NCBI GenBank assembly: GCA_963807575.1
Contig: CAWECD010000017.1
Span: forward strand, 125,176 to 189,175
Source of the DNA: an uncultured Acidimicrobiaceae bacterium
Lineage (GTDB): Bacteria; Actinomycetota; Acidimicrobiia; Acidimicrobiales; Bog-793
DNA: 64,000 nt
Reading direction: 5' to 3'
Made by a program: the position numbers and the translations under genes. The notes under the pieces were generated by a model that searched no databases, was not told where the DNA came from, and worked only from the letters and a program-made list of their open reading frames with translations. Positions 8,306-59,590 of this stretch are shown piece after piece (within the stretch, counting starts at the first letter, position 1; each line of letters opens with the position of its first letter).

Positions 8306-9571
8306 ATGCGGATAATTTCAGAGCAAGAGCTCGGGAACAGGCTCGGTTCCCTGTCCGAGACGGCGCCGCGGGTTGTCGTCACCGGCAACTGGGGCTCGCC
8401 CAGGAGGGCACTCGAGATCCTCGACGCGAACCTCGAAAACTACCGGGTGTTCATGGTGGGTTCCCATCATCCCATCTCGTCCCGGCCGGGCGTGCGTTAC
8501 GAGACGCCCTTTGTCGGGGCCGGAATGCGCCATTCCTCCGCGCTCGACTACATACCAATGCGACTCTCCCTGGTTCCGCGGCTGTTTGCGATCTCCCACC
8601 CGCCCGATGTCCTCCTGCTCCAAACCTCGACATCGAGAGACGGCAAAGTGTCGCTCGGCATCGAGGTCAACGTCCTGCCGGCGGCTTTGGAGGCGGCACG
8701 CGCACGCGGTGCGCTCGTTGTCGCCCAGGTCAATCCTCAGATGCCGTACACCTTCGGCGAAGGGGAGATCGCGACGGACATCATCGACGTCGCCATCGAG
8801 GTGGATGAAGCTCTCGACATCACCGAGGCGCACTCCTCTGATGGCCGAAAGGATCAGATCGGTGACTACATAGCCAATCTCGTGCCAGACGGCGCCACGC
8901 TGCAACTCGGGATAGGCGCGATACCCGATGCAACCTTGGAACGGCTCGTGCGGCGCCGCGGGCTGCGGATCTGGTCGGAGATGATCAGCGACGGCGTTCT
9001 CACTCTGGAGCGGTCGGGAGCTCTTGACCCAGACCGTCAGATCGTCACGTCGTTCATCGGCGGATCCGAGGAGCTCTACAAGTGGGCCGACGGCAATCCC
9101 AGGCTGCGGATGTTCCGGACCGAGACCACCAACGACCCGGCGATGATCGCGGTCAACCCGATGATGATCTCCATCAACGCGGCCGTGCAGATCGACCTAT
9201 TTGCCCAGGCGAACGCGAGCTACGTCGGTGGCCGCATCTTTTCCGGCTTCGGTGGTCAGACCGACTTCATCGTCGGGGCGCTGCACTCCGCCGGCGGGCA
9301 GGCCGTGATCGGTCTGCCATCGTGGCACGAAAAGTCGAAGACCTCTACCGTGGTCCCGCTCTTGGACATGCCCGCGACTTCGTTCCAGCATTCGGTCGTG
9401 GTCACCGATCAAGGTTGCGCCCACGTCTTCGGGCGCAGCCAGCACGACCAGGCCCGCCTGCTCATCGAAAAGGCTGCCGCTCCGCAGGCTCGCGACGAAC
9501 TCTGGGACGCCGCCGAGCGACTCGGCCTCGCGGACGCCAACAGCGGGACCAAGCCGCCCGACAATCTCTAG
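8306..9571 (+). CDS. acetyl-CoA hydrolase/transferase family protein (4-hydroxybutyrate CoA-transferase-like)
   Basis: 421 aa with family-typical two-domain layout and SGFGGQTDF motif region. Confidence 0.8.
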   Translation: MRIISEQELGNRLGSLSETAPRVVVTGNWGSPRRALEILDANLENYRVFMVGSHHPISSRPGVRYETPFVGAGMRHSSALDYIPMRLSLVPRLFAISHPPDVLLLQTSTSRDGKVSLGIEVNVLPAALEAARARGALVVAQVNPQMPYTFGEGEIATDIIDVAIEVDEALDITEAHSSDGRKDQIGDYIANLVPDGATLQLGIGAIPDATLERLVRRRGLRIWSEMISDGVLTLERSGALDPDRQIVTSFIGGSEELYKWADGNPRLRMFRTETTNDPAMIAVNPMMISINAAVQIDLFAQANASYVGGRIFSGFGGQTDFIVGALHSAGGQAVIGLPSWHEKSKTSTVVPLLDMPATSFQHSVVVTDQGCAHVFGRSQHDQARLLIEKAAAPQARDELWDAAERLGLADANSGTKPPDNL

Positions 9572-24090: not shown

Positions 24091-24167
24091 TGGCGCCCCC
24101 GGGAGGACTCGAACCTCCGACCGTCTGCTTAGAAGGCAGCTGCTCTATTCCGCTGAGCTACGGGGGC
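24091..24167 (-). tRNA. tRNA-Arg (anticodon TCT), CCA encoded
   Basis: Reverse complement GCCCCCGTAGCTCAGCGGAATAGAGCAGCTGCCTTCTAAGCAGACGGTCGGAGGTTCGAGTCCTCCCGGGGGCGCCA folds as cloverleaf with loop CTTCTAA. Confidence 0.85.
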
Positions 24168-24741: not shown

Positions 24742-24816
24742 ATGGTGGCCGTAGCTCAGTTGGTTAGAGCGCCAGGTTGTGGCCCTGGAGGTCGGGGGTT
24801 CAAGTCCCCTCGGTCA
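24742..24816 (+). tRNA. tRNA-His (anticodon GTG) with extra 5' G(-1)
   Basis: GGTGGCCGTAGCTCAGTTGGTTAGAGCGCCAGGTTGTGGCCCTGGAGGTCGGGGGTTCAAGTCCCCTCGGTCACC; anticodon loop TTGTGGC. Confidence 0.85.
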
Positions 24817-24867
24817 CCCTCTGTTGGTCGGTACGGTCGCGAGACCGACTAGGCTCACCGGCCGGAC

Positions 24868-24944
24868 GCGCCTCTAGCTCAATTTGGCAGAGCAACGGAC
24901 TCTTAATCCGCAGGTTCCGGGTTCAAGTCCCGGGGGGCGCACCA
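24868..24944 (+). tRNA. tRNA-Lys (anticodon CTT), CCA encoded
   Basis: GCGCCTCTAGCTCAATTTGGCAGAGCAACGGACTCTTAATCCGCAGGTTCCGGGTTCAAGTCCCGGGGGGCGCACCA; anticodon loop CTCTTAA. Confidence 0.85.
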
Positions 24945-25562: not shown

Positions 25563-25704
25563 CCGCGACTACAACTCGCGGCCAGGCTCTGCGCGCCGCC
25601 GTAGCTCCCTGAGTACCCGCGCGGTCTGACCGCAGGGGGGCGAGCCGGGAGGGCAGTCCGAGGGGGCGACCCGGCCGTCCGGCCGTAGGGCTGCTGGCCG
25701 CCTC

Positions 25705-25895
25705 TGCTACCCTTCGTTGCGACGGCTTCGGCCGTCTCGCTGCCTACAGGGGAAGTCCGGTCAAACTCCGGCGCTGGCCCGCAACCGTAGGCGAGGCTCG
25801 TCCTCGCAAGCCGGGAAACCTGTCGGTGGCGAGTCCTACTAACCGTCGAGGAAAGCGGGGACTGGGAACCGGTACGGCAGCGGTGTCCCAGCGCT
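25705..25895 (+). promoter_or_regulatory. cobalamin (B12) riboswitch-like leader
   Basis: AGGGGAAGTCCGGTCAAACTCCGGCGCTGGCCCGCAACCGTAGG and downstream GGGGACTGGGAACCGGTACGGCAGCGG match the conserved core (GGGAA / GGTG-AA-CC / CCCGC-ACTGT) and B12-box region (GCCACTG ... GGGAAGG) as I remember them; located in 5' leader of the operon starting at 25929. Confidence 0.7.
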
Positions 25896-25928
25896 TCTCC
25901 GGGGTCCAGTATCCGGGAGAGGACGTTC

Positions 25929-27056
25929 GTGTCACCATCCGCCCTTAGCACGGCCCGGACCTGCCTTGTGGCAGCCCTCCTCGGCCTCGGAGCCGCCACC
26001 GTGCCAGTTGCGTCGGCCGCCACCACTCAGCCGCCTCACGCGCCGCTTGGATTCCAAGCCCACGCCGCGACAGTGACGGCGGCGGCTTCCGGTGCAGGCT
26101 GGATCGCCCGCGACTTGAGCGCGAGTGGAGCGCTCGTCGACGCCGTCTCGCACAAGCCCAGCGTCGGCGACACGGCGGACGCAATCTTGGCCCTGGCCGC
26201 CGCCGGCGATGGTGCCAAGCAGGTCAAGGCCGCCACTTACTGGCTCGAGCAGCACTTCGGCTCCTACGTCTCTGCCAAGGGCGTCGACATCCCGGGAGGG
26301 CTCGGTCTCGTGGTCCTCGCAGCGGTTGCAGCGGGCGCGAACCCGGCGCGCTTCGGTGGCGAGGCCAGTTCGAACGACCTGGTTGCCAGACTCCAGGCAA
26401 CCGAGCAGTTGAAGGGCGCATACGCCGGAGTCTTCGGCGCCACCGGCTCGGCCAACGCGTTCAGCCAGTCGCTGGCAGTTCTCGCGCTCGTCTCGGCGAA
26501 GGGCTCTGCAAAAGCGATCCACCTCGCTCAGGCCTATCTGGCAAGCCGCCAGTGCACCGACGGGGGCTGGGAGTACTCCCTCACCACGCCTTGTGCCAAG
26601 CCGGACCCGAAGACATACGCCGGTCCCGACACCAACTCGACGGCACTGGCCGTCATGGCGATCGTGGCCGCCGGCGGGTACTTTGCCCATGGCCCACTGA
26701 CTTTCTTCAAGAGCTCACAAGAGGCCGATGGGTCGTTCGGGTACTACGGCGTGGCCGGGGACGGGCAGCAGGGCGATCCTGACTCGACAGGCGAGGTGGT
26801 CCAGGCCCTGATCGCCCTCGGCGCGCTGAACGACCCCCAGTTCATGCGCAACGGCACGACGCCCGAGCAGGCCCTCGGGCAATTCCAGTACGGCTGCCAA
26901 TCGCCGGTGAGCGAGCGCGGTGAGTTCTCCTACGACGGCGCCCCCAGTCAGTACGCCACATTGCAGGCCGTTCCCGCAGCAGCGGGCGTCGCGTTCCCCC
27001 TCGCCGCCCACAAGCTGTCTGCCGCCGAGCCACAGCTCAACTGCGGTGCGGGCTGA
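25929..27056 (+). CDS. secreted alpha/alpha-toroid protein with prenyltransferase/squalene-oxidase-type repeats
   Basis: GTG start after GGGAGAGG RBS; signal peptide LVAALLGLGAATVPVASA; repeats QCTDGGWEY and QEADGSFGYYG of the QxxDGGW class. Confidence 0.7.
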   Translation: MSPSALSTARTCLVAALLGLGAATVPVASAATTQPPHAPLGFQAHAATVTAAASGAGWIARDLSASGALVDAVSHKPSVGDTADAILALAAAGDGAKQVKAATYWLEQHFGSYVSAKGVDIPGGLGLVVLAAVAAGANPARFGGEASSNDLVARLQATEQLKGAYAGVFGATGSANAFSQSLAVLALVSAKGSAKAIHLAQAYLASRQCTDGGWEYSLTTPCAKPDPKTYAGPDTNSTALAVMAIVAAGGYFAHGPLTFFKSSQEADGSFGYYGVAGDGQQGDPDSTGEVVQALIALGALNDPQFMRNGTTPEQALGQFQYGCQSPVSERGEFSYDGAPSQYATLQAVPAAAGVAFPLAAHKLSAAEPQLNCGAG

Positions 27057-27084
27057 CTCGAGGCCGACCGGGGCTGTCACGCTG

Positions 27085-27810
27085 ATGGCGGTCGCGGTTG
27101 TCGCGGCCGCCATCAGCGCAGTTGTGTCGCCGTGTACGGTGGGGTCCGCGGCAGCGAGTGCGGCTCCGCGCTCGAAGGACCCCTCGCTGTCATGCACGGT
27201 TCCCGCACACGTCGCCGCCGACCAGATCGTCGTCCCTGTCGTCGCCGATTTCGGCGGGGTGAACGGCAGGGTCCTGGTCACTTGCGTTGCTGTCCAAGCC
27301 GGTGACAACGGCGAGCAAGTGTTGCAAGCCCAGGCCGCGCTCCTGCGATACCCATCTCCCCGTTATGCCCAGTCGGGCTCCGGCCTCCTGTGTGCCATTG
27401 ACGGCTACCCGACGAGCGGTTGCGGGAACCAATCGGGGCCCCATTACGCCTATTGGGCCTACTGGCACGGCGGGAAGCGATGGCAGTACGCGAGCCAAGG
27501 ACCCGGCGAGTGGAAGGTCTCCAAAGGCGACGTCGAGGGGTGGCGTTTCGAGCCGGCTGGCAGCGCGACACCGACCGATCCTCCTCCGCGGGCCGCTTCG
27601 AGCGCGACTGCGCTCGAGACACCCTCCACTGCCACTCCAAAGACGTCGTCGCCAACTTCGGGCGGACACGGGGCTGGCCCCGTCGGCTCATCGGGCGGCG
27701 GCAGGAAAGACACAGCCCCGATCCCGTTCATCCTCAGCGTCGCCTTTATCCTCCTGATCGGCGCCACCGCCCTGCTTCGCTCCCGGCGCGCGAACAGCCG
27801 TGCCGCTTAG
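27085..27810 (+). CDS. DUF4430-like (transcobalamin beta-domain-like) protein, signal peptide plus C-terminal TM anchor
   Basis: Core GPHYAYWAYWHGGKRWQYASQGPGEWKVSKGDVEGWRFE matches W-x-Y...G...GD-x-x-x-W/Y pattern of DUF4430; Pro/Thr/Ser linker then IPFILSVAFILLIGATALL anchor. Confidence 0.65.
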   Translation: MAVAVVAAAISAVVSPCTVGSAAASAAPRSKDPSLSCTVPAHVAADQIVVPVVADFGGVNGRVLVTCVAVQAGDNGEQVLQAQAALLRYPSPRYAQSGSGLLCAIDGYPTSGCGNQSGPHYAYWAYWHGGKRWQYASQGPGEWKVSKGDVEGWRFEPAGSATPTDPPPRAASSATALETPSTATPKTSSPTSGGHGAGPVGSSGGGRKDTAPIPFILSVAFILLIGATALLRSRRANSRAA

Positions 27811-28908
27811 ATGCTGAGAACCCGCCTCCAGCCGCTGCACCCGATCGCCTGGTGGTGCTGGGCCGGGGCCCTGGCCGTCGCCGCCAGCCGCACGACAGAC
27901 CCGCTCCTGCTCGGTCTCATCCTCGCAGTGGTGGCCTGGGTCGCGACCACACGGCGCGGCAACAGTCCCTGGGCACGCTCGTTCGGCACGCTCATGCGAC
28001 TTGGGCTAGTTGTCATCGTCATCCGAGTCGTCGTCCAAGTCCTGTTCGGTGACCGGGTGCCGGGCGCCACGTGGTTCAGCCTTCCCGAAATCCCACTGCC
28101 CTCATGGACCGCCGGTGTGACAATCGGAGGGCCCGTGACGGCTCAAGCAGTTATCGGGGCGTTCTGCCAGGGCCTGCAAATCGCAGTGATCCTGGCTTGT
28201 TTCGGCGCTGCCAACTCCCTGGCGAGCTCGTTCCGGCTCTTGCGTTGCGTGCCGGCGGGCCTGTACGAGGTGGCCGTGGCGGTGACCGTGGCGATCTCGT
28301 TCACGCCACAGGTCGTGGTATCAATTGCCCGAGTCCGAGACGCCCGGCGCTTGAGGGGCCGGGGCACGACCGGCCTGAAGGGTTGGCGTGGCCTGGCGGT
28401 GCCGGTTCTCGACGGCGCACTCGAGCGCTCGGTCGCATTGGCGGCTTCAATGGACGCCCGTGGGTTCGGGCGACGCTCCACTTCGCCAAGGCGCCGGCGG
28501 GCCACCGCGGCGGCGACACTCGGGGGTCTCGTCGGGCTTGGCATAGGACTGTTCGAGGTGCTCGACTCCGGCTCGGCTTCGGGAATCGGGCTTGCCGTCG
28601 TCCTGGTCGGAGGCGCCCTCGTCTTGGGGGGCCTCGTCGCCTCATCGCACGGCTCGAGGAGTCGTTACCGGCCCGATCGCTGGCATGTCGCCGAATGGCT
28701 CGTCGTGGCGGCGGGGCTCGCGGCCGTTGCCGGGATCGTGGCAGCAGGCAGCAACGACCCGAGCGCGCTCGTGCAGCCTCTTTATCCCCTCGCGCTGCCG
28801 CAGGGCCCGGCCGTTGCGCTGGCCGGCATCCTCGTCGCCACCGCGCCATCTGCCGTCGCACCGGTGCCGGCGACGGGGCACACCGAGCTCAAAGAGGCCT
28901 GGGCGTGA
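27811..28908 (+). CDS. energy-coupling factor transporter transmembrane protein EcfT (CbiQ family)
   Basis: Multi-TM protein with CbiQ-like layout and the Arg-rich coupling helices (VRDARRLRGRG). Confidence 0.8.
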   Translation: MLRTRLQPLHPIAWWCWAGALAVAASRTTDPLLLGLILAVVAWVATTRRGNSPWARSFGTLMRLGLVVIVIRVVVQVLFGDRVPGATWFSLPEIPLPSWTAGVTIGGPVTAQAVIGAFCQGLQIAVILACFGAANSLASSFRLLRCVPAGLYEVAVAVTVAISFTPQVVVSIARVRDARRLRGRGTTGLKGWRGLAVPVLDGALERSVALAASMDARGFGRRSTSPRRRRATAAATLGGLVGLGIGLFEVLDSGSASGIGLAVVLVGGALVLGGLVASSHGSRSRYRPDRWHVAEWLVVAAGLAAVAGIVAAGSNDPSALVQPLYPLALPQGPAVALAGILVATAPSAVAPVPATGHTELKEAWA

Positions 28909-30536
28909 TCGCCTTCGACCGCGTCACGGTCACCTACCCCGGTGCCGGCGCACCCGTCCTCGCGAACGTGAGCTTGGAGATCGAAGAAGGTCATCTTGCC
29001 CTCGTCATAGGCGCGACGGGTTCGGGGAAGTCGACGGTGCTGCGCTGCGTCAACGGCCTCGTCCCTCATTTCTCCGGCGGCCGGCTCAACGGGACCGTGA
29101 CCGTCGACGGGCGCAGCACCGAGCAGTACCGTCCCCGCGACCTGGCCGATGCCGTCGGTTACGTCGGCCAGGACCCTGATGCGACCTTCGTCGCCGACAC
29201 GGTCGAAGACGAGCTCGCATATGCCATGGAGAACCTCGGCGTGGACCCGGCGACGATGCGACGGCGGGTCGAAGACGTGCTGGACACCTTGAACCTGCAC
29301 GCACTGCGCCACCGGGCCATCACGACGCTATCGGGCGGTCAGCGCCAGCGCGTCGCCATCGGCGCCGCGTTCACCGCCGCGCCTCGCACCCTCGTGCTCG
29401 ACGAGCCGACGTCATCGCTCGACCCCGTCTCGGCCGAGGAAGTGCTGGCGTCACTCGCACGCCTCGTCCACGACCAGGGCACGACCATCCTCGTCGCCGA
29501 GCACCGTCTCGAGCGCATCGTGCAGTTCGCGGACATCGTCGTCGAGCTCGGTACCGCTCCTGGTGGGGTCCGTAGCGGCACGCCGGGCGCCGTCTTCGCC
29601 ACGGCGGAGCTGGCGCCGCCGGTCGTCCGTCTTGCCCGTGTCGCCGGATGGTCGCCCGTCCCGCTCTCGGTGCGAGACGCGCGCCGCCATGCCCCCGAGC
29701 TCCGGCACCGCCTCGAGCCAAGGACGCGCCCGCCGGCTCCCGCGTCCCGAGGTGACCGCGTCGCCAGGGTGAAGGGCCTCACCGCCTCCTACGGGCCAAT
29801 CCCGGCACTGGCGGAGGTGACCGTCGATCTCCACCAGGGTGAAGTGGTCGCAGTCATGGGAAGAAACGGAGCCGGGAAGTCCACCCTCCTCCACCATCTC
29901 GTCGGGCTTCGCCGCCCCCAGCGAGGCTCGGTGGAAGTCCTTGGCCGCGCGCCGGGTGAGCTCGCCGCGTCCGAGGCCATCCGGCTCGTCGGTCTCGTGC
30001 CCCAGGACCCCGGGGCGCTGCTGTGTGCCGAGACCGTGGCAGCCGAATGCCGAGACGGCGACCACGACGCCAGGCTTGCAGAGGGGACGACGCGAACGAT
30101 GCTCGAGTCCATCGTCGCCGGCATCTCCGACAAGACGCACCCCAAGGACCTCTCCGAAGGTCAGCGCCTCGCACTGGCGCTGGCGATAGTGCTGGCGCCC
30201 GAGCCACCGCTGCTGCTGCTCGACGAGCCCACGCGCGGGCTCGACTACGGGGCCAAGGAGCGCCTGTCCCAGCAGCTCCGCCAGCTCGCGGCCCGGGGTC
30301 ACTGCGTCGTCGTGGCGACCCATGACGTCGAGCTGGTGGCCGAAGTTGCCGACAGAGTGGTCGTGCTTGCCGACGGCGAGGTGATCACCGACGGCCCCGC
30401 CCGCTCGGTCGTCTGCCATTCGGCCGGTCTTGCCTCCCAGGTGGCCCGGGTCCTCGCCCCGGCGGAGTGGCTGACGGTCGAGGAGGTCGCCACGGCCCTT
30501 GGAGGGCGGCCGAACGGAGACGGGGCGTCCTCGTGA
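28905..30536 (+). CDS. fused tandem ECF ATPase (EcfA-EcfA')
   Basis: GTG start overlapping ecfT stop (GTGA); two complete ABC cassettes: Walker A GATGSGKST and GRNGAGKST, two LSGGQ/LSEGQ signatures, two Walker B (LVLDEPTS, LLLDEPTR). Confidence 0.85.
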   Translation: MIAFDRVTVTYPGAGAPVLANVSLEIEEGHLALVIGATGSGKSTVLRCVNGLVPHFSGGRLNGTVTVDGRSTEQYRPRDLADAVGYVGQDPDATFVADTVEDELAYAMENLGVDPATMRRRVEDVLDTLNLHALRHRAITTLSGGQRQRVAIGAAFTAAPRTLVLDEPTSSLDPVSAEEVLASLARLVHDQGTTILVAEHRLERIVQFADIVVELGTAPGGVRSGTPGAVFATAELAPPVVRLARVAGWSPVPLSVRDARRHAPELRHRLEPRTRPPAPASRGDRVARVKGLTASYGPIPALAEVTVDLHQGEVVAVMGRNGAGKSTLLHHLVGLRRPQRGSVEVLGRAPGELAASEAIRLVGLVPQDPGALLCAETVAAECRDGDHDARLAEGTTRTMLESIVAGISDKTHPKDLSEGQRLALALAIVLAPEPPLLLLDEPTRGLDYGAKERLSQQLRQLAARGHCVVVATHDVELVAEVADRVVVLADGEVITDGPARSVVCHSAGLASQVARVLAPAEWLTVEEVATALGGRPNGDGASS

Positions 30537-31369
30537 CTGCCACGCACGGCCGGCGGCCCGTCGGTCTCGACCGGTTCGGCTCTTTGGCCATCGCGATCGC
30601 GTCGATGATGGGAGCGGTCGCGTTCGCGTGGCCGCTCTTCATCCCGGCGCGCGCGTCACTGAACCAGGCGCACGCCGGCGATGCGCCCTGGATCGTCGCC
30701 GCGCTCCTGCCCCTGTTGCTCGTGGCCGTGCTCGGCGAGTTCAACTCTGGCGGCATGGACGCGAAGGGCGTCGCCATGCTCGGAATGCTCGGCGCCTGCG
30801 GCGCTGCGCTGCGGCTTCCCTCAGGTGGTGCCGCCGGATTCGAGCCCGTCTTCTTCCTGCTCTTCCCTGCCGGTTATGTGTTCGGGCGCCACTTCGGCTT
30901 CCTACTCGGTGCCCTTACCCTCTTCGCCTCGGCCCTCGTCACCGGTGGCGTCGGTCCCTGGTTGCCCTTCCAGATGATGGCGGCAGCGTGGATGGGTTAT
31001 GGCGCCGGCTGTCTTCCCCACTTACCGGGCCGCCGCGAGCTTGTCGTGCTGGCGGCGTATGCAGCCCTTGCGTGCCTTGCCTACGGGCTGCTGCTCAACT
31101 TGTGGTTCTGGCCCTTCGGCGCTGGGACCTCATCGACCCTCTCGTTCGAGCCCGGGGCGGCGCTGGCACACAACCTGGTCCGTTTCCTGCTGTTCGATGC
31201 CTCGACGTCGCTCGGGTTCGACCTGCCTCGGGCCGCGCTGAACGCCGGACTGCTCCTGGTCGCGGGGCGCCCTGTGCTGGCCGCTCTGCGCCGGGCCAGT
31301 CACCGTGCAGCCTTCGGTGCCCCAGTCGAAGTTGCGCCCCACGCACTGGATGCACCGACGAGCTCCTGA
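30533..31369 (+). CDS. putative ECF substrate-specific (S) component / integral membrane protein
   Basis: GTG start overlapping ATPase stop; ~6 hydrophobic helices, no soluble domain; position and size fit an S component but no family-level match I can state. Confidence 0.55.
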   Translation: MTATHGRRPVGLDRFGSLAIAIASMMGAVAFAWPLFIPARASLNQAHAGDAPWIVAALLPLLLVAVLGEFNSGGMDAKGVAMLGMLGACGAALRLPSGGAAGFEPVFFLLFPAGYVFGRHFGFLLGALTLFASALVTGGVGPWLPFQMMAAAWMGYGAGCLPHLPGRRELVVLAAYAALACLAYGLLLNLWFWPFGAGTSSTLSFEPGAALAHNLVRFLLFDASTSLGFDLPRAALNAGLLLVAGRPVLAALRRASHRAAFGAPVEVAPHALDAPTSS

Positions 31370-37564: not shown

Positions 37565-40500
37565 CTATGAGCAACCACTCGTCGAACCGCAGCTCGGGCA
37601 GGCATAACACGAGCCGGCACGCTGCATGACGTTGCCGCAGGCGTAGCAGAACGGGGCGTCCTTGCTCTCCATCTGTCCCGCCTGCCTCATCTGTTCGGTG
37701 TCACTCGGTCGACGCCTTGCCGCTGTGTCCCCGCCGGCGCCGAACCGCTCGCGATCGGTCCGCTCCGCGTCCCCGTTGTCGACATCCTCGAGCCCGGGCA
37801 ATGTCGGTTGCGTCCGTTCCCCCGTCGAGAGCACTCCGAGCTCGAGCCGCTCGTCAAAGCTCAAGTAGTCGAGGGCCAGCCGCCTGAAGATGTAGTCGAC
37901 GAGGCTCGAAGCCAGTCGCAGCTCCGGGTCGTCGGTGATCCCTGCCGGCTCGAACCGGAGGTTGGTGTACTTCCGGACGAAAGTCGACATCGGAACGCCG
38001 TGCTGGAGCCCGAGACTGACGGCGATGGAGAAAGCATCCATGACACCCGATAGGGTCGAACCCTGCTTGGAGACCTTCATGAAAACCTCACCGGGGCGGC
38101 CGTCTTCATACTCGCCCACTGTGACGTAGCCCTCGCAGTCGGCCACCCGGAAGGCGAAGGTATTGGAGCGACGTTTGCGGGGCAGCCGGGTTCGCGTCGT
38201 AGTGGCAGGGGCGATCACATGTCTCTGCTGCAGCGCACCCTCGAGCTCCGCGATGCGCTCGAGCAGCGCTCCCTCCCGCACGAGGCTTGCCCGTGAGGCT
38301 TCTGACGCGACATCGTCATCGTCGCCCAGGAGCGGTGCGCCGGCACCCGCCCACTTCGTCGTCGCCAGCGGCTGGGCAACCTTGCAGTTGTCGCGGTAGA
38401 CGGCGACCGCTTTCAGGCCCATTTGCCAGGCATCGATGTGCAGCTGCTCGACTTCTTCGACCGTAGCCTGCTCGGGAAGATTCACCGTCTTTGAAATGGC
38501 ACCCGAGATGAACGGCTGCGCCGCGGCCATCATCTTCACGTGACCCAGATAGTGGATCGTGTTGTCACCCATGGAACAGGCGAAGACCGGCAAATGCGCC
38601 GCCTTCAGACTGGGCGCCCCCAGGATGGTCTTGTGCTCGTCTATGTAGGCGACAATCTCGTCGATCTCGTCAGCACTGTAGCCAAGCCGCTTCAACGCGC
38701 GGGGAACGGTCTGATTGACGATCGACATCGTGCCGCCACCGACGAGCTTCTTCGTCTTCACAAGTCCAAGATCAGGCTCGATCCCCGTCGTATCGCAGTC
38801 CATGAGGAACGAGATCGTTCCCGTAGGCGCCAGCACCGTCGCCTGGGCATTGCGCACGCCATAGGCCTCGGCTAGATCGACCGCGGTGTCCCAGGCCTCC
38901 TGCGCCGCGCAGAGAAGCTCGGTCGAGACCTGTTCCTCGTCGATCTTCGCCACCTCGACGCGGTGCATCCGCAGTACGTCCAGCATCGGGCCCGCGTTCT
39001 CATGGAAGCCGGCGAACGGCCCCATTCTCGCTGCCGTGCGGGCCGAGGTCGCGTACGCCGCGCCCGTCATGAGAGCCGTGATCGTCGCCGCGATGGCCCG
39101 GCCCTCGTCCGAGTCGTAGGGCACGCCCTGAGCCATGAGCAGCGCCCCGAGGTTTGCGTAACCGAGGCCCAGCTCTCGGAACCGGCGCGTTGTGTCAGCG
39201 ATCTTCGCCGTCGGGTAGTCGGCGTTGCCGACAAGGATCTCCTGAGCCGTGAACACGATGGTGACGGCCGCTTCGAACCCCTTGGCGTCGAAGGTGTCGT
39301 CGTCGTTCAAGAAGCGCATGAGGTTGAGGCTGGCGAGGTTGCAGCTGCTGTTGTCGAGGTGAACATACTCAGAGCAAGGGTTGCTGGCCGTGATCCGGCC
39401 TGTGTTGGGCGCCGTGTGCCACTTGTTGATGGTCGTGTCGAACTGGATGCCGGGGTCCGCGCACTCCCACGCGGCCTCTGCGATCTGACGGAACAGGCCA
39501 CGCGCCCTGAGAGTCTCGATGACCTCGCCCGAAGTCCGGCTGATGAGATCCCAGTCGGCGTCGTCGAGCACTGCCCGCATGAACTCGTCTGTCAGCCGGA
39601 CCGAGTTGTTGGCGTTCTGGTACTGAACGGACTGGCTGTCCCTGCCATCCAGGTCCATATCGAAGCCGGCCTGTGCCAACACACGCGCCTTGCGCTCCTC
39701 ACGGGCCTTGCACCAGATGAACTCTTGGATGTCCGGGTGGTCGGCATCCAGGATCACCATCTTTGCCGCGCGACGCGTCTTGCCGCCGGACTTGATCGTT
39801 CCTGCAGAGGCGTCCGCCCCGCGCATGAAGCTCACGGGCCCCGAGGCCGTCCCGCCCCCGTGAAGCAGCTCCCGGGAAGACCGGATGTTCGAAAGGTTGA
39901 CTCCCGCGCCAGACCCACCTTTGAAGATCGTGCCCTCCTCGACGTACCAATTGAGAATGGAGGCCATCGAGTCCTCGACGCCCAGGATGAAGCAGTTGTG
40001 AACACGCAGACCGGAGCTCAGGTACTCGCCGCTCTCGGTCTGGATGTCAAAGACGTCCATCTCGCCGACGTCCTCGATCCCTGTGATGTCCAGTCGCCCG
40101 GAGATCTCCCCTTCACAAGAGGAATCGGTCCGGTGCCAGCTCAGCTGGTCCCCCACCTGCAGCTCAGCGGCGGGAACGAACCGGCCGGTATCTTCGCCGC
40201 TCGCCCGCCACACGAGATGATCAGCGGTGACGTCGAGCTGGTGCCCGGCCTTGGTCGTAACGCGCAGCACGTGCTTGCGCCCGTTGGCCTTGACCGCCAC
40301 GATGCGGGTCAGACCATCGGCGTCGAACACCTTCTGACCGACGGCTTCGTCCTCGACGAGGCGCCCGATCGGGACAGGGCCGCCAGGAGTCGAGACCAGC
40401 GCGTCATAGGGTTGGCACGCGGCAGCCTGCTGCGGCACACCTTCAACGCCGATGTTGAACCAGACCGGTGAGTTGAACGCCGCCTTCTGCTGCACGACGA

Positions 40501-40894
40501 GGTGCTTGAGCTCGTCGCTGAAGATGGCCGCCTCGGCCGAATCAACGAAATACCCGTCTTTCAAGCCCCATGCCGTGATCGTGTCCACGACACGGTCGAC
40601 AATCTGCCGCAGCGAGTGTTCCCGTCCCGGCATGCCGACGGTACCTCGGAAGTACTTCTGAGCGAGGATGTTGGTCGCATTCAGGCTCCAGGTCGAAGGC
40701 ACCTCGACACCGGGCTGTTCGAACGCGACAGCCCCGGTGCGGTAGTCGCTGATGCGGGAGTCACGGAGCTCCCAGACGACCTCGCCGTAGGGATGGCGGG
40801 ACTCCGTGGTGAAGTGTCGTCGGATGCCAATTCCGAGGCGCTCTCCTGCAACGGCCATTGAACGGTGCCCTCCTTGGCGGAACCTGTCCACCAC
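37565..40894 (-). CDS. nrdJ: class II (adenosylcobalamin-dependent) ribonucleotide reductase NrdJ, intein-containing, C-terminal zinc ribbon
   Basis: FNSPVWFN and active-site ...AAAC|FILGVED split by intein; long actinobacterial NrdJ form; C-terminal CYACGN...CYACPSCG; true start may be the ATG 12 codons in (MAVAGERLG). Confidence 0.9.
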   Translation of the reverse strand: MVDRFRQGGHRSMAVAGERLGIGIRRHFTTESRHPYGEVVWELRDSRISDYRTGAVAFEQPGVEVPSTWSLNATNILAQKYFRGTVGMPGREHSLRQIVDRVVDTITAWGLKDGYFVDSAEAAIFSDELKHLVVQQKAAFNSPVWFNIGVEGVPQQAAACQPYDALVSTPGGPVPIGRLVEDEAVGQKVFDADGLTRIVAVKANGRKHVLRVTTKAGHQLDVTADHLVWRASGEDTGRFVPAAELQVGDQLSWHRTDSSCEGEISGRLDITGIEDVGEMDVFDIQTESGEYLSSGLRVHNCFILGVEDSMASILNWYVEEGTIFKGGSGAGVNLSNIRSSRELLHGGGTASGPVSFMRGADASAGTIKSGGKTRRAAKMVILDADHPDIQEFIWCKAREERKARVLAQAGFDMDLDGRDSQSVQYQNANNSVRLTDEFMRAVLDDADWDLISRTSGEVIETLRARGLFRQIAEAAWECADPGIQFDTTINKWHTAPNTGRITASNPCSEYVHLDNSSCNLASLNLMRFLNDDDTFDAKGFEAAVTIVFTAQEILVGNADYPTAKIADTTRRFRELGLGYANLGALLMAQGVPYDSDEGRAIAATITALMTGAAYATSARTAARMGPFAGFHENAGPMLDVLRMHRVEVAKIDEEQVSTELLCAAQEAWDTAVDLAEAYGVRNAQATVLAPTGTISFLMDCDTTGIEPDLGLVKTKKLVGGGTMSIVNQTVPRALKRLGYSADEIDEIVAYIDEHKTILGAPSLKAAHLPVFACSMGDNTIHYLGHVKMMAAAQPFISGAISKTVNLPEQATVEEVEQLHIDAWQMGLKAVAVYRDNCKVAQPLATTKWAGAGAPLLGDDDDVASEASRASLVREGALLERIAELEGALQQRHVIAPATTTRTRLPRKRRSNTFAFRVADCEGYVTVGEYEDGRPGEVFMKVSKQGSTLSGVMDAFSIAVSLGLQHGVPMSTFVRKYTNLRFEPAGITDDPELRLASSLVDYIFRRLALDYLSFDERLELGVLSTGERTQPTLPGLEDVDNGDAERTDRERFGAGGDTAARRRPSDTEQMRQAGQMESKDAPFCYACGNVMQRAGSCYACPSCGSTSGCS
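39995..40417 (-). other. 141-aa mini-intein inside nrdJ (no homing-endonuclease domain)
   Basis: Starts with Cys (CQPYDALVSTPGGPVPIG, block A), TxxH block B (VTTKAGHQL), ends ...GLRVHN followed by Cys+1 (CFILG); removal reconstitutes the conserved RNR active-site AACF motif. Confidence 0.75.
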
Positions 40895-45537: not shown

Positions 45538-47418
45538 TCAGTCCGCCCCCGGCACACCCGATTCAGGCTCACCGTCGGGACCGAAGCCCAACGACTTTGC
45601 GAACATCTCGGTGAAGGACCGATGCACCGTCAGCTCCACGTAGCGTACGCGGTTGGCCAGGCTGTCCGCCATCGCCCGACGTTCTCGCGACAACAGCAGC
45701 TGCTGGGCCCCCCGGCCCGCGGCATTTCCCACCTGCCGGTAGCGCTCTCGCCCCACATTCACTAACAGCCCCACGCCTATCGCGCTCTCGAGATCCAGGT
45801 AGGTGCCAAAAGCACCCGCCACAATGACGCTGTCCAGGCTCTTGGCCCCGATGCCGGCCTCTCTCAACAAGATCTCTGTACCGGCCCGGATCGCACCTTT
45901 GGCAAGCTGAATCTCGTTCACGTCAGAACGAGTGAAGACCACGTCGCGCCCATGGCCTGCCCGGCCCGCCGGCACCAGCAGGCAGGTGGGCCCGCTCTCG
46001 GTGCTGCTCACCAGCGGATGACCCTTGACGAGCGACCCTCGCTGGTCGATGATCCCGGCTTTCAATCCCTGGGCCACCACGTCCAGGATGCCCGAACCGC
46101 AGATGCCGATCGGTGGCGCCTTGGCGATGGTCTGCACCTGGAAAGCGCCCCCGTGAAAGCGCACGTGCTCGACGGCGCCGGGCGCCGCCCGCATCCCGTC
46201 ATGAATGTGCGCCCCCTCAAATGCCGGACCCGACGCAGTCGAGCAGCTCCAGATCGCGCCCTTGTGCGACAAGCTGATCTCCGTGTTCGTGCCAATGTCA
46301 AGGGCCAGCACAGTCAGTGTGGTGTCTGCCAGCCCGCTGGCCAGGAGCATCGCCACGTGGTCGGAGCCGACATAGCCCGCGATATTCGGCGGCAGATAAA
46401 GGGTGGCTCCCCCGTCGAGGTGCACGCCGATCTCCTCGGCACGCACCACCATTGAGTCGCTCACGCAAGCGACGTAGGGGGCCTCGCCCAACTGGCGCAC
46501 AGGCAGATCGGTCACAAAATGGTGCATGGCCGTGTTCCCGACCACGACGGCATCGACTATCTGGCCACGGTCCGCGCCGGCTTGCTGGCACAGCTCGCCC
46601 ACCATTCGGTTCAGCTCGTCAACCAGCCTCTCGTGCAGCAACTGTTTAGCCCCGTCAGCGGTGTTCGCGTAGGTGATACGAGTAACGACGTCTTCGCCGT
46701 AGGCCGTCTGAGGATTCATGGCGCCGACCTTGGCCAACGTCTCGCCACTGGCGAGGTCGACCAAGTACCCGGCCAGCTTGGTCGTTCCGGCGTCCACGGC
46801 CAGGCCGAGCAGCGCCCCGCCGGCAGGTTGGACCGAGACGAGCACCCCGGTACCCTCTGGGTGCCTGTACACAGCCCCTCGTCCCCGCCACTGTTGTGCG
46901 CGCAGCCGGTTCGAGCACGCCCTGGCACTCCCCAGGCTGATAGTGGTCGCTCCCGCGCCCGCCTGAGCCAGCGCCTCTTGCAACCGCGTGGTGTCGGCGC
47001 GCAAGTCATGCAGTGAAGGAGGTTCGAGCACCAGATCTACGCCGATGACCGGTGGGTCCAGTGTGAAGTCCACAGCCTGACCTTCGGTCTGCAGACGCTG
47101 TGGGGCACTGAGCGACTCGGGAGGTATTTCCAGGCGGACCGCACCACACACCAGCGCCTGGCAGGCCAGCCGCCAGCCCTCGCCACGCTCGATGGCAGTC
47201 AGCAGGCTCTCTTCCTCGGCGGTCTCAGCGCCGAGCGGGCCGTCGACCGCCCGGACGCGACAGGTGCCGCAGGTGCCCCCCCCGCCACACACCGACACCA
47301 TCTCGACGCCCGATGCCTGTGTGGCCTCCAAGACCGTCACGCCGGGCGCTACTCGCACTCGCCGGCCCACCGGCTGCAGCTCCACGCTGACAAGCGCTGC
47401 GGGATCGGCCTCAGCCAT
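45538..47418 (-). CDS. RACo-type reductive activator of corrinoid proteins ([2Fe-2S] ferredoxin + ASKHA ATPase, DUF4445)
   Basis: N-terminal plant-type ferredoxin CGGGGTCGTC; C-terminal sugar-kinase/Hsp70/actin fold with DAGTTK and DIGTNTE phosphate motifs. Confidence 0.8.
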   Translation of the reverse strand: MAEADPAALVSVELQPVGRRVRVAPGVTVLEATQASGVEMVSVCGGGGTCGTCRVRAVDGPLGAETAEEESLLTAIERGEGWRLACQALVCGAVRLEIPPESLSAPQRLQTEGQAVDFTLDPPVIGVDLVLEPPSLHDLRADTTRLQEALAQAGAGATTISLGSARACSNRLRAQQWRGRGAVYRHPEGTGVLVSVQPAGGALLGLAVDAGTTKLAGYLVDLASGETLAKVGAMNPQTAYGEDVVTRITYANTADGAKQLLHERLVDELNRMVGELCQQAGADRGQIVDAVVVGNTAMHHFVTDLPVRQLGEAPYVACVSDSMVVRAEEIGVHLDGGATLYLPPNIAGYVGSDHVAMLLASGLADTTLTVLALDIGTNTEISLSHKGAIWSCSTASGPAFEGAHIHDGMRAAPGAVEHVRFHGGAFQVQTIAKAPPIGICGSGILDVVAQGLKAGIIDQRGSLVKGHPLVSSTESGPTCLLVPAGRAGHGRDVVFTRSDVNEIQLAKGAIRAGTEILLREAGIGAKSLDSVIVAGAFGTYLDLESAIGVGLLVNVGRERYRQVGNAAGRGAQQLLLSRERRAMADSLANRVRYVELTVHRSFTEMFAKSLGFGPDGEPESGVPGAD

Positions 47419-48105: not shown

Positions 48106-48741
48106 TCAGGCGGCAAGCACCTCTTTCACCAGGCGCACGGCACTGGAGGCGTCCTCCGCGTAGCCGTCGGCCCCGATCTCGTCCGCATACGACTTGGTGA
48201 TCGGCGCCCCTCCGATGACGATGCGCACCTGGTCGCGGAGTCCCGCCGCTTTGATCGCCTCGATGGCGACCTGCATGTTGATCATCGTCGTTGTCAACAG
48301 CGCCGACATCGCCACCACGTTCGCCCCGTCGCGGATCGCCTGGATGAACTTCTCCGCCGGAACGTCCACGCCCAGGTCGACGATCTCGTAGCCCGAGCCC
48401 TCGAGCATCATCGCCACGAGGTTCTTCCCGATGTCGTGCAGGTCCCCCTGGGTGGTGCCGATCGCCACCTTGCCGCTGGATGCCACCCCCTCTTCTACGA
48501 GGTGGGGCTTGAGCACGCTGAGCGCCGCTGTCATGGCCCGGGCGGCCACCAGCATCTCGGGCACGAAGATCTCACCTTCCTCATAGAGCTTGCCCACCTC
48601 GGCCATGGCCTTGATCAGGCCCTCCCGCAGCAAGGTCCCCGCCTCGATGCCGCCGTCCAAGCCCTCGGTCACCTTGGCGACGGCAAGCTTTGCCTGCCCG
48701 TCCACTACTGCCTCACGAAGCTCCTCGATCAACGCCATGGC
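48106..48741 (-). CDS. cobalamin-binding corrinoid protein (MtaC/MtbC-like)
   Basis: B12-binding N-cap helix bundle then Rossmann domain with DxHxxG motif (GDLHDIGKNLVAMMLEGSGYEIVDLG) and SALLTTT; start at internal ATG MALIEEL. Confidence 0.8.
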   Translation of the reverse strand, partial: AMALIEELREAVVDGQAKLAVAKVTEGLDGGIEAGTLLREGLIKAMAEVGKLYEEGEIFVPEMLVAARAMTAALSVLKPHLVEEGVASSGKVAIGTTQGDLHDIGKNLVAMMLEGSGYEIVDLGVDVPAEKFIQAIRDGANVVAMSALLTTTMINMQVAIEAIKAAGLRDQVRIVIGGAPITKSYADEIGADGYAEDASSAVRLVKEVLAA

Positions 48742-48879
48742 GTTCCTGCTCCATTCTCCTGGTGTTCGATGCGGACGTGCACAGCTTCGGGACACGCGAG
48801 CCCAGATCGTCGTCGACCCCGAGCGAGCGGACTTCCCGCGATGTTGCCGCCACACGCGGATGCCTGGCCAAAGACACTG

Positions 48880-50295
48880 CTAGTCGCCGTACTGCTCGGT
48901 CAGTTCGCTTGCCATCTGGGCCCACTGCCACAGGCGCTGAGGCTCATAGCGCACGGTGCTCACGTCTTTCATGATGACCTCGACGACGCACCCGTGCGCC
49001 TTGGTCTTGTCGAGGACGGTCTTCAAGTCGTGCCTGGCCTTGTCGAGGTTCCAGGTGGTCTCGGCGAACACCGCCGGGTTGGGCTTGTGGGAGAACACGT
49101 AGCGGCTGCCCACATTGGCCACGGCCTCGTCGATATTGACCCAGGGGCTCATCGACACCTTGCGCAGGTTGGGCACCTTCTCCAAGATGGCCATCTTGCG
49201 GTGCAGGGGATCGCAGCAGCCGTAGTAGGTCAAGCCGAACCGGCTCATCCACCTCAGCTCGTACTGCAGCGAGAACTCCCAGTGCATGCGCGGCGAGACG
49301 TCGGAGAAGATCTGGGCGGCGCCGCTGCCCCAGAGGTCCTTCGCCCGTACGTGTGCAGGGTCGAAGTCCGGAGGCGGCAGCTCGTGCGTGTAGCCGAGGC
49401 CGCCAGAACCTATCCGGAAGTAGGCGTTGTTGAGCGTCAGCAGGTCCTGGGCTTCAAACTGGTCGAGCATGGCGCAGTAGGCGTTCACGAGCTTGTCTAT
49501 GGCCTTGTGGACGAACTCGGGACGGTCGTAGAGGTCCACCATGGCCTCCTGGACGCCCCACCACCTGATCATCTCGTCCCAGGGCGCGAACCAGAAGCAG
49601 AAACCATTCGCCCCAAGCTTGTTGACCTCGACGACCCCGTCCATGATCTCCGACAGCTGCTCGTGCTGCTCCTCGGATGCCGCAGCGTCATGGGTAATGA
49701 CCGGGACCTTGATCTTCTCGAGGTCGTCCTCATCTCGTATCTGGATGTTGAAGTGCCGGGAGACAACCGAATTCGCCTCGTCGGTGACGGCAATGTCCAC
49801 GTCTTCGGCGATACCGAACGCCGTGTTGTGCACCACCAACGGCGACCACACCACCGGTTCCACGACCATGTCCGCCGCCATGTGCTGCCATTGATAGATC
49901 AGCTTGCGCATCTCCCATTCGTGGTAGCGGCTCCACTCGCTGGATGTCTGCAGGCGCAACTCGCCGTCGACGTCCATCTCGTGCCACGGGACCTCGTCGA
50001 TCCAGACCATCGGCTTGACATGCTTGAGCCCGTTCATGGCACGCCAGCTGGAGGCGGTCTCGGCGTGCCCCGGCAGCGCGGCGATGGCCGCCAGCCGCTC
50101 GCCCAAGTGGCGCAGGACCTTCTTGTCGGCTTCGGTGACCTCTGCGGGGGTACCCGTCAAGGTCCCTCTTCGTGACGGGTCGACCAGCCAGTTTGTATCC
50201 TCCATCGAAACTCGCCCCAATCCTTGGGCTTGAAACGAAATTTCTGCGACCTTACCAGATCCGATCTGAGCCTCAGAAATCGTTATCTGAGTCAT
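48880..50295 (-). CDS. URO-D-fold methyltransferase (MtaA/CmuA-like) with ~150-aa N-terminal extension
   Basis: Segment FAPWDEMIRWWGVQEAMVDLYDRPEFVHKAIDKLVNAYCAML parallels HemE/MtaA SPWTLA...LYxEPELLHxLLDKLT region; operon context with corrinoid protein and RACo. Confidence 0.55.
   Translation of the reverse strand: MTQITISEAQIGSGKVAEISFQAQGLGRVSMEDTNWLVDPSRRGTLTGTPAEVTEADKKVLRHLGERLAAIAALPGHAETASSWRAMNGLKHVKPMVWIDEVPWHEMDVDGELRLQTSSEWSRYHEWEMRKLIYQWQHMAADMVVEPVVWSPLVVHNTAFGIAEDVDIAVTDEANSVVSRHFNIQIRDEDDLEKIKVPVITHDAAASEEQHEQLSEIMDGVVEVNKLGANGFCFWFAPWDEMIRWWGVQEAMVDLYDRPEFVHKAIDKLVNAYCAMLDQFEAQDLLTLNNAYFRIGSGGLGYTHELPPPDFDPAHVRAKDLWGSGAAQIFSDVSPRMHWEFSLQYELRWMSRFGLTYYGCCDPLHRKMAILEKVPNLRKVSMSPWVNIDEAVANVGSRYVFSHKPNPAVFAETTWNLDKARHDLKTVLDKTKAHGCVVEVIMKDVSTVRYEPQRLWQWAQMASELTEQYGD

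Positions 50296-59238: not shown

Positions 59239-59590
<352 letters not shown>

Follow-up and report, generated by a model that had tools for sequence, protein, structure and literature searches.

The window analysed here is a 64,000-nt stretch of contig CAWECD010000017.1 (NCBI GenBank assembly GCA_963807575.1) from an uncultured Acidimicrobiaceae bacterium, and it contains a five-gene operon led by a cobalamin riboswitch. We conclude that this operon probably encodes a cobalamin-repressed, dedicated (group I) energy-coupling factor (ECF) importer of corrinoids that works with an extracytoplasmic helper module. The module consists of two Sec-exported proteins, here called the toroid protein and the beta protein, whose genes are followed by those for EcfT, a fused EcfA-A' ATPase and an S component (Table 1). 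The predicted substrates are cobalamin and, probably, cobinamide-type precursors. A more specific arrangement, in which the toroid and beta proteins would form a two-protein, transcobalamin-like sandwich and close as a heterodimer around B12, is possible, but we put it forward tentatively. The initial annotation of the window, made from the letters alone, had likewise proposed a dedicated ECF transporter and two extracytoplasmic proteins behind a cobalamin riboswitch, and all of these parts are indeed encoded in the operon. In its interpretation, the riboswitch-led ECF operon, the two exported proteins and the transcobalamin beta fold have stood (riboswitch scan and Foldseek), whereas membership of DUF4430 by hidden Markov model (HMM) and the claim of novelty have not.

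The leader of the operon contains the only cobalamin riboswitch aptamer found by an Rfam scan of the whole window. The match to RF00174, obtained in that scan and in a focused rerun, lies well above the gathering score and extends over the full model (positions 1-189), with both the conserved core and the B12 box present. The core sequence GGGGAAGUCCGGUCAAACUCCGGCGCUGGCCCGCAACCGUA, on which the initial annotation had based its claim of a cobalamin-riboswitch leader, falls inside the aptamer, and the claim is borne out. The B12 box itself was identified in the RF00174 alignment as AGCCGGGAAACCUG, at about 25809-25823. A second element that had been described as B12-box-like, GGGGACTGGGAACCGG at 25857-25872, is not a B12 box; its place is in the expression platform, 3' of the aptamer, and the earlier label is therefore wrong. 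This element (GGGGACUGGGAACCGG, + strand) resembles the true B12 box, GCCGGGAAACCUG, located 40 nt upstream, and may have a role in alternative pairing or in a kissing-loop contact.

Within the expression platform, RNA folding predicted a hairpin at 25891-25926 in which CUUCUCC (25894-25900) is paired with the Shine-Dalgarno sequence GGAGAGGA (25916-25923), just 5' of the GTG start codon at 25929. A terminator scan found no intrinsic terminator in the leader, and translational control of the operon is therefore the more likely mechanism, as judged from the leader sequence. The fold energy of the whole leader was not better than that of shuffled sequence (z 0.34).

The riboswitch is a constant feature of related operons. 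A one-genome-per-species scan yielded 80 loci of the beta family, from Acidimicrobiales, Microthrixaceae, Iamiaceae, other Actinomycetes and metagenome-assembled genomes (MAGs) of Mycobacteriales, and tblastn with the five window proteins showed that the order toroid-beta-T-AA-S recurs in approximately 75 of them. When the riboswitch core was searched for with a regular expression (CCGGYRCTGNNCCGCANCYGT), 73 of the 80 loci gave exactly one match each, on the operon strand. The other seven gave no match: six of these contigs end before the operon start, and the seventh locus, L057, is cut off just past the beta gene. The core is kept in every one of the 73 related loci having upstream DNA. It is positioned 110-220 nt upstream of the toroid gene; in loci without a toroid gene, about 300-450 nt separate it from the portion of the beta gene that was aligned. 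By our own estimate, well under one chance match of the regular expression would be expected in the 1.2 Mb searched. In addition, RF00174 scored above its gathering threshold in eight of ten tested loci with an upstream region, and also in L083.

The corrinoid assignment of the operon is based on this conservation in all upstream-complete loci, which backs it strongly, and on the B12-related genes nearby. Genes for cobinamide salvage (CbiZ and/or CobU) adjoin the operon in L047, L054, L058 and L060, with cbiZ and cobU of L054 oriented divergently to it. Methylmalonyl-CoA mutase is encoded near the operon in L053, L067 and L083, the last of which also has MeaB and an operon divergent from both genes. 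In the window, a gene for a class II ribonucleotide reductase, nrdJ, is located about 6 kb from the operon, and its product is a likely consumer of the imported cofactor. Farther along, genes for a RACo-type reductive activator of corrinoid proteins and for a corrinoid protein are accompanied by an open reading frame (ORF) that may encode the partner methyltransferase, and the three look like a corrinoid-dependent methyl-transfer system in this Acidimicrobiales MAG.

The five genes of the operon are co-directional and tightly packed, as had been noted initially, and the arrangement was confirmed at each junction. The toroid and beta genes are separated by 28 nt, or overlap by 11 nt if the beta protein begins at the alternative GTG codon, which would supply its signal peptide with a charged n-region. 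The TAG stop codon of the beta gene directly abuts the ATG of the EcfT gene, and GTGA start/stop overlaps, confirmed in the sequence at 28905 and 30533, couple the EcfT gene to that of EcfA-A' and the latter to the S component gene. Three tRNA genes, at 24094-24167 (-), 24745-24818 (+) and 24868-24941 (+), lie shortly before the operon, and the same trio is found ahead of it in the related locus L002. The window also contains a tmRNA gene at 59239-59590 (+).

Table 1 Features of the cobalamin-riboswitch-led operon and of the B12-related genes in the window
Feature	Position	Strand	Remarks
Cobalamin riboswitch aptamer (RF00174)	25703-25841	+	cmscan 44.8 bits, gathering score 31.5
Expression platform	25842-25928	+	RNA fold
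Toroid protein gene	25929-27056	+	375 aa; GTG start
Beta protein gene	27085-27810	+	241 aa; alternative GTG start at 27046
EcfT gene	27811-28908	+	365 aa
Fused EcfA-A' ATPase gene	28905-30536	+	543 aa
S component gene	30533-31369	+	278 aa; last gene of the unit
Class II (B12-dependent) ribonucleotide reductase gene nrdJ	37565-40894	-	1109 aa; Ribonuc_red_lgC, Ribonuc_red_2_N, TSCPD
RACo-type reductive activator of corrinoid proteins	45538-47418	-	
Corrinoid protein	48106-48855	-	B12-binding and B12-binding_2 domains
ORF beside the corrinoid protein	48880-50295	-	471 aa; no Pfam match

The last three genes of the operon encode the transporter core. EcfT matches CbiQ (PF02361) with 38.2 bits, above the cutoff of 25, through a domain at residues 16-221. 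The protein is about 100 residues above the usual length and has a C-terminal extension of approximately 140 aa (residues ~225-365), in which hydropathy analysis revealed about four additional hydrophobic segments. In related loci, tblastn aligned EcfT over most of the query, typically residues 5-350. The tethered beta protein might dock on this extension. EcfA-A' contains two ABC_tran domains (182 bits) in a single polypeptide and scores 305.7 bits against TIGR04520 and 294 bits against TIGR04521, slightly under the equivalog cutoffs of 315 and 330 of these ECF ATPase models, which were made for single-domain proteins and are here applied to a double-domain one. The S component is a multi-pass membrane protein that matches PF12822 with 27.8 bits, just below the cutoff of 30.7; the same family matches 11 of 19 S-component orthologues at E <= 0.1 (best 2.5e-8). 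A profile search found at least 7830 relatives of the S component, for which NCBI and JGI use the name 'ECF transporter S component'.

These matches also bear on the question of whether the operon might encode an ECF transporter for cobalt or nickel ions, of the CbiMNQO or NikMNQO kind. Pfam assigns the T component to CbiQ, the ATPase is matched by cbiO-type models, and cobalt ECF systems are classic targets of B12 riboswitches, for example in C. difficile. CbiQ and CbiO are, however, the generic EcfT and EcfA families. The S-like protein, for which the initial annotation had considered a CbiM/NikM identity, has no match to either family in Pfam, its matches being PF12822 and PF07155 only, and no CbiN-like gene was found. 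A protein with the transcobalamin beta fold would, moreover, be pointless in the operon of a metal-ion transporter. The cobalt-transporter reading was rejected on the grounds that the S component is not CbiM and CbiN is absent, and we regard metal-ion import by this operon as barely credible.

The beta protein comprises, in order, a signal peptide, a beta domain (residues ~35-185), a Pro/Ser/Thr-rich linker, a C-terminal transmembrane helix and an RSRR tail. The signal peptide and the C-terminal anchor had both been claimed initially, and both are predicted by the topology analysis. The beta domain has conserved cysteines and the invariant motifs YxYWxYWHG...VEGWRF, within the consensus YAYWxYWHGG...W.Y...GP...V..GDVEGWRF. 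In the AlphaFold (AF2) model of the protein, most of the core has a predicted local distance difference test (pLDDT) score above 90. The top 16 Foldseek matches of this model in the PDB are all transcobalamin or haptocorrin, the free transcobalamin beta domain or the DUF4430 structure 3u7z, and intrinsic factor follows at rank 19. The matches to transcobalamin and haptocorrin span approximately 111-121 columns. The isolated human transcobalamin beta domain, 5no0, ranks first (E 3.3e-4, probability 1.00, TM 0.70), and 5np4, which according to its PDB title is the isolated beta domain with cyanocobalamin bound, is also among the matches. The conclusion that the beta protein, as modelled, has the transcobalamin beta-domain fold holds. 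The beta family is large: on clustering at 50% identity, 3299 clusters fall within E <= 1e-3 and 1257 within E <= 1e-10.

The toroid protein is predicted to have an N-terminal signal peptide and no membrane anchor, and its AlphaFold model is an alpha/alpha toroid with a pLDDT of 89.7 and a predicted TM-score (pTM) of 0.85, in agreement with the initial claim of a secreted protein of this type. By model comparison, its alpha6/alpha6 fold and the transcobalamin alpha domain belong to one fold class. Two cysteines, C209 and C222, are conserved. An Acidimicrobiales MAG encodes a protein with 100% identity to it. The likeness to squalene-hopene cyclases (SQHop) that had been anticipated was recovered as a Pfam match to SQHop_cyclase_C, although at 25.7 bits it stays under the cutoff of 26.1. 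The general-acid motif of squalene-hopene cyclase, PDVDDTA, aligns with PDTNSTA in the toroid protein, where D234, T235, N236 and T238 hardly vary across the family. The toroid protein is not a cyclase, because the catalytic DxDD motif is replaced by the near-invariant PDTNSTA; an active class II terpene cyclase was ruled out on account of this loss and of the secretion of the protein. As far as its sequence indicates, a toroid that is secreted and has no catalytic residues would suit a role in binding.

The closest curated models of the two exported proteins are SCO2321 for the toroid protein (NCBIfam NF053823, 123.7 bits, cutoff 300) and SCO2322 for the beta protein (NCBIfam SCO2322_fam, NF040672, 57.7 bits, cutoff 85). 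Both scores are below the curated cutoffs, and the window proteins are therefore outlying relatives of SCO2321 and SCO2322.

Several variants of the exported pair were observed among the related loci. In a subgroup, represented by L053 (5887-7860, +) and P0220, the toroid protein is about 630-660 aa long, and its C-terminal half consists of approximately five tandem GGYWLVASDGGVFSFGDAxFxGS repeats, which resemble beta-propeller blades and have no Pfam match. In L083, an extra 161-aa gene (8361-8846, +) with a weak, sub-threshold SH3b-like Pfam match lies between the toroid gene and the SCO2322-type gene. L030 (6467-8828) has the riboswitch core, the toroid gene and the beta gene with no detectable EcfT, EcfA or S component downstream, where the ORFs are without an informative Pfam match; it is the only transporter-less exception among the 73 upstream-complete loci. 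L057 and L059 both end just after the beta gene.

A number of observations weigh against the reading favoured here. The first group concerns sequence-level relationships. The initial assignment of the beta protein to DUF4430 stands at the level of fold, through the Foldseek matches to transcobalamin and 3u7z, and fails at that of family membership: the local Pfam scan gave no match, including to DUF4430 (PF14478), even at E <= 10. All of the 120 beta homologues listed, including P0001 at 81% identity, carry PF28005 ('SCO2322') instead, a family that was not part of the local scan, the assignments of the homologues being precomputed. A profile of the beta family, searched against PDB sequences, retrieved no transcobalamin or DUF4430 chain and gave spurious matches only (to the low-complexity or transmembrane tail, and to a PsaF segment). 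Similarly, the S component matched none of the solved S components, including CbrT, among PDB sequences at E <= 10, either as a single sequence or as a family profile. The second group concerns the toroid protein, whose closest structural neighbours are terpene cyclases, with glycoside hydrolases also near, and not B12 carriers. Its family profile likewise matched only squalene cyclases and prenylcyclases among PDB sequences, with no transcobalamin match, and the protein gave no HMM match to PF01122, the alpha domain of the eukaryotic cobalamin-binding family. The third group is comparative. Eleven loci (L043-L045, L048, L049, L054, L057-L060 and L079), mainly from Microthrixaceae and Iamiaceae, lack the toroid gene, and here the beta gene comes immediately after the riboswitch. 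Of the two accessories, it is thus the beta protein that is constant, the toroid protein being optional. Furthermore, two toroid-beta fusions, L081 (7001-8464, Amycolatopsis magusensis) and L082 (7001-8620), stand alone, with neither RF00174 nor an adjacent ECF operon in the two contexts examined. A genetic result on heme in Lactobacillus sakei, considered below, belongs on the same side.

Part of this evidence would be explained if the ECF core imports B12 and the exported pair is something other than a transcobalamin-like sandwich. The beta protein alone could then be the binder, or a wall-spanning relay, and the toroid protein could bind envelope carbohydrate or lipid, or free B12 from environmental complexes. 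The eleven riboswitch-led loci with a beta gene and no toroid gene are in line with such a division, as are the cyclases and glycoside hydrolases that are nearest in fold to the toroid, its other C-terminal additions elsewhere (such as the repeat domain in L053 and P0220) and the ability of the isolated transcobalamin beta domain to bind cyanocobalamin by itself (title of PDB 5np4). Against it, 62 of the 73 loci with an upstream region have the toroid gene next to the beta gene, with a possible overlap in the window, and the catalytic cyclase motif of the toroid is lost. Moreover, the two are fused in the domain order of transcobalamin in several Actinobacteria (P0196, P0199, P0211, P0214 and P0232), and the C-terminus of P0232, from Amycolatopsis magusensis, aligns with the beta family at an hhalign probability of 93.6%. 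Since L081 and L082 stand alone, these fusions support a partnership of the two domains and not B12 specificity, and the module is not always linked to B12. On balance, we consider it unlikely that the pair does not form a sandwich while the core imports B12.

A published system raises the further question of whether the substrate might be heme or another tetrapyrrole. In L. sakei, the lsa1836-1840 operon is described as encoding an S component, EcfA-A', EcfT and two exported proteins, of which Lsa1839 and Lsa1840 are presented as beta- and alpha-domain homologues of transcobalamin (bioRxiv 10.1101/864751). As that description has it, the authors proposed that the two proteins scavenge outside the cell and then hand off to the S component, and heme, not B12, is the reported substrate: a deletion mutant showed a heme-uptake defect, and its impaired heme accumulation was restored on complementation. 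The statement in the initial annotation that no such split binder-plus-ECF system had been characterised is therefore wrong, since the L. sakei operon, so described, has the same five parts and its mutant was tested genetically for heme. Tetrapyrroles are chemically alike, and the S component of the window is unlike CbrT, which would both be compatible with heme import here. However, every related locus that is complete has its operon under a cobalamin riboswitch, the adjacent genes are those of B12 salvage and B12-dependent enzymes and not of heme, and the L. sakei operon itself, as given in that source, is auto-annotated as cobalamin transport. In addition, the DUF4430 gene LGG_02295 of Lacticaseibacillus rhamnosus adjoins rtpR, which encodes a B12-dependent ribonucleotide reductase (PMC9963975), a neighbourhood that hints that the lactobacillar version may serve B12 too and not heme alone. 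Import of heme in place of corrinoids by the actinobacterial operon thus appears very unlikely.

For corrinoid import, the following mechanism can be envisaged. When intracellular coenzyme B12 is high, the aptamer would fold, the Shine-Dalgarno sequence would be held in the 25891-25926 hairpin and the operon would be off, and under B12 shortage it would be switched on. The tethered beta domain would bind the corrinoid outside the membrane, as the isolated human transcobalamin beta domain can. Where a toroid protein is present, it may close over the other face of the corrinoid like the alpha domain of transcobalamin, intrinsic factor and haptocorrin, which would give high affinity at very low ambient concentration. 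The corrinoid would then be handed to the S component, which is expected to topple in the EcfT scaffold, and ATP hydrolysis by EcfA-A' would reset the cycle. The class II ribonucleotide reductase of the window would presumably use the imported cofactor, as would the corrinoid methyltransferase system, both being encoded close to the operon.

Few microorganisms make B12 and many need it. Its capture at picomolar levels by Gram-positive and actinobacterial cells is, to our knowledge, little understood, the few studied routes being ECF-CbrT, BtuM and BacA. We offer, as a conjecture, a broader proposal that may well prove wrong: in a large actinobacterial clade, ECF importers would routinely use a two-protein capture device of tethered beta protein and secreted toroid. 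This device would be the unfused prokaryotic counterpart of transcobalamin, intrinsic factor and haptocorrin, possibly their evolutionary source, and a very-high-affinity corrinoid binder that docks on the S component; the fused forms would then be single-chain bacterial 'transcobalamins'. If the exported pair does bind corrinoids, many Actinobacteria of soil, peat and wastewater own a transcobalamin-style scavenging system, and the ECF rule of no external binding proteins has a broad exception. In that case, the heme assignment in L. sakei would merit re-examination, and the origin of animal B12 carriers would become testable.

By the classical definition, ECF transporters do not use extracytoplasmic binding proteins, and CbrT reportedly uses a shared ECF module and no extracytoplasmic helper proteins. 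High-affinity extracytoplasmic capture of B12 that feeds a membrane transporter under a B12 riboswitch is known from BtuFCD and from BtuG and BtuH, B12-binding surface proteins of Bacteroides, in which the logic is the same as that proposed for the window system and the folds and transporter class are unrelated. Compared with ECF-CbrT of Lactobacillus delbrueckii (PMC5997447), the window system is also an ECF-type ATP-binding cassette importer with the same predicted substrate class, cobalamin and cobinamide, but its operon is dedicated, with its own T and A-A' components, and its S component has no sequence match to CbrT. In B12-auxotrophic acI Actinobacteria, ECF modules behind cobalamin/adenosylcobalamin (AdoCbl) riboswitches were proposed as B12 transporters (PMC5301498); we liken them to the window operon by their description, which does not include accessory transcobalamin-like proteins.

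The mammalian carriers transcobalamin, intrinsic factor and haptocorrin are alike in combining an alpha6/alpha6 barrel with a small beta domain, and the fused bacterial versions have the same order. In contrast, the domains in the window are separate polypeptides, the toroid is nearer to terpene cyclases, no significant match exists at the sequence level, and the predicted delivery is to a membrane transporter, not to an endocytic receptor. SCO2321 and SCO2322 (NF053823, NF040672 and PF28005), which provide the best models for the toroid and beta proteins, are the curated names of the actinobacterial gene pair, families with no functional annotation beyond the name. The closest system in composition is that of L. 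sakei, which has the same five parts and is likened here through its published description, not by sequence. It differs in coming from a Firmicute, in its reported substrate, heme, and in an operon description that, in what it covers, mentions no riboswitch. The window system, for its part, has a PF28005 beta protein with a C-terminal transmembrane anchor and a long extra C-terminal membrane region in EcfT, and the actinobacterial operon, wherever the upstream region is complete, is always under a cobalamin riboswitch. Relative to these known systems, this work defines an actinobacterial variant whose PF28005 beta protein is anchored C-terminally, whose EcfT is extended and whose S component has no sequence relation to CbrT. 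Control by a cobalamin riboswitch does not vary across the clade, the catalytic cyclase motif has disappeared from the toroid, and both toroid-less and fused forms occur.

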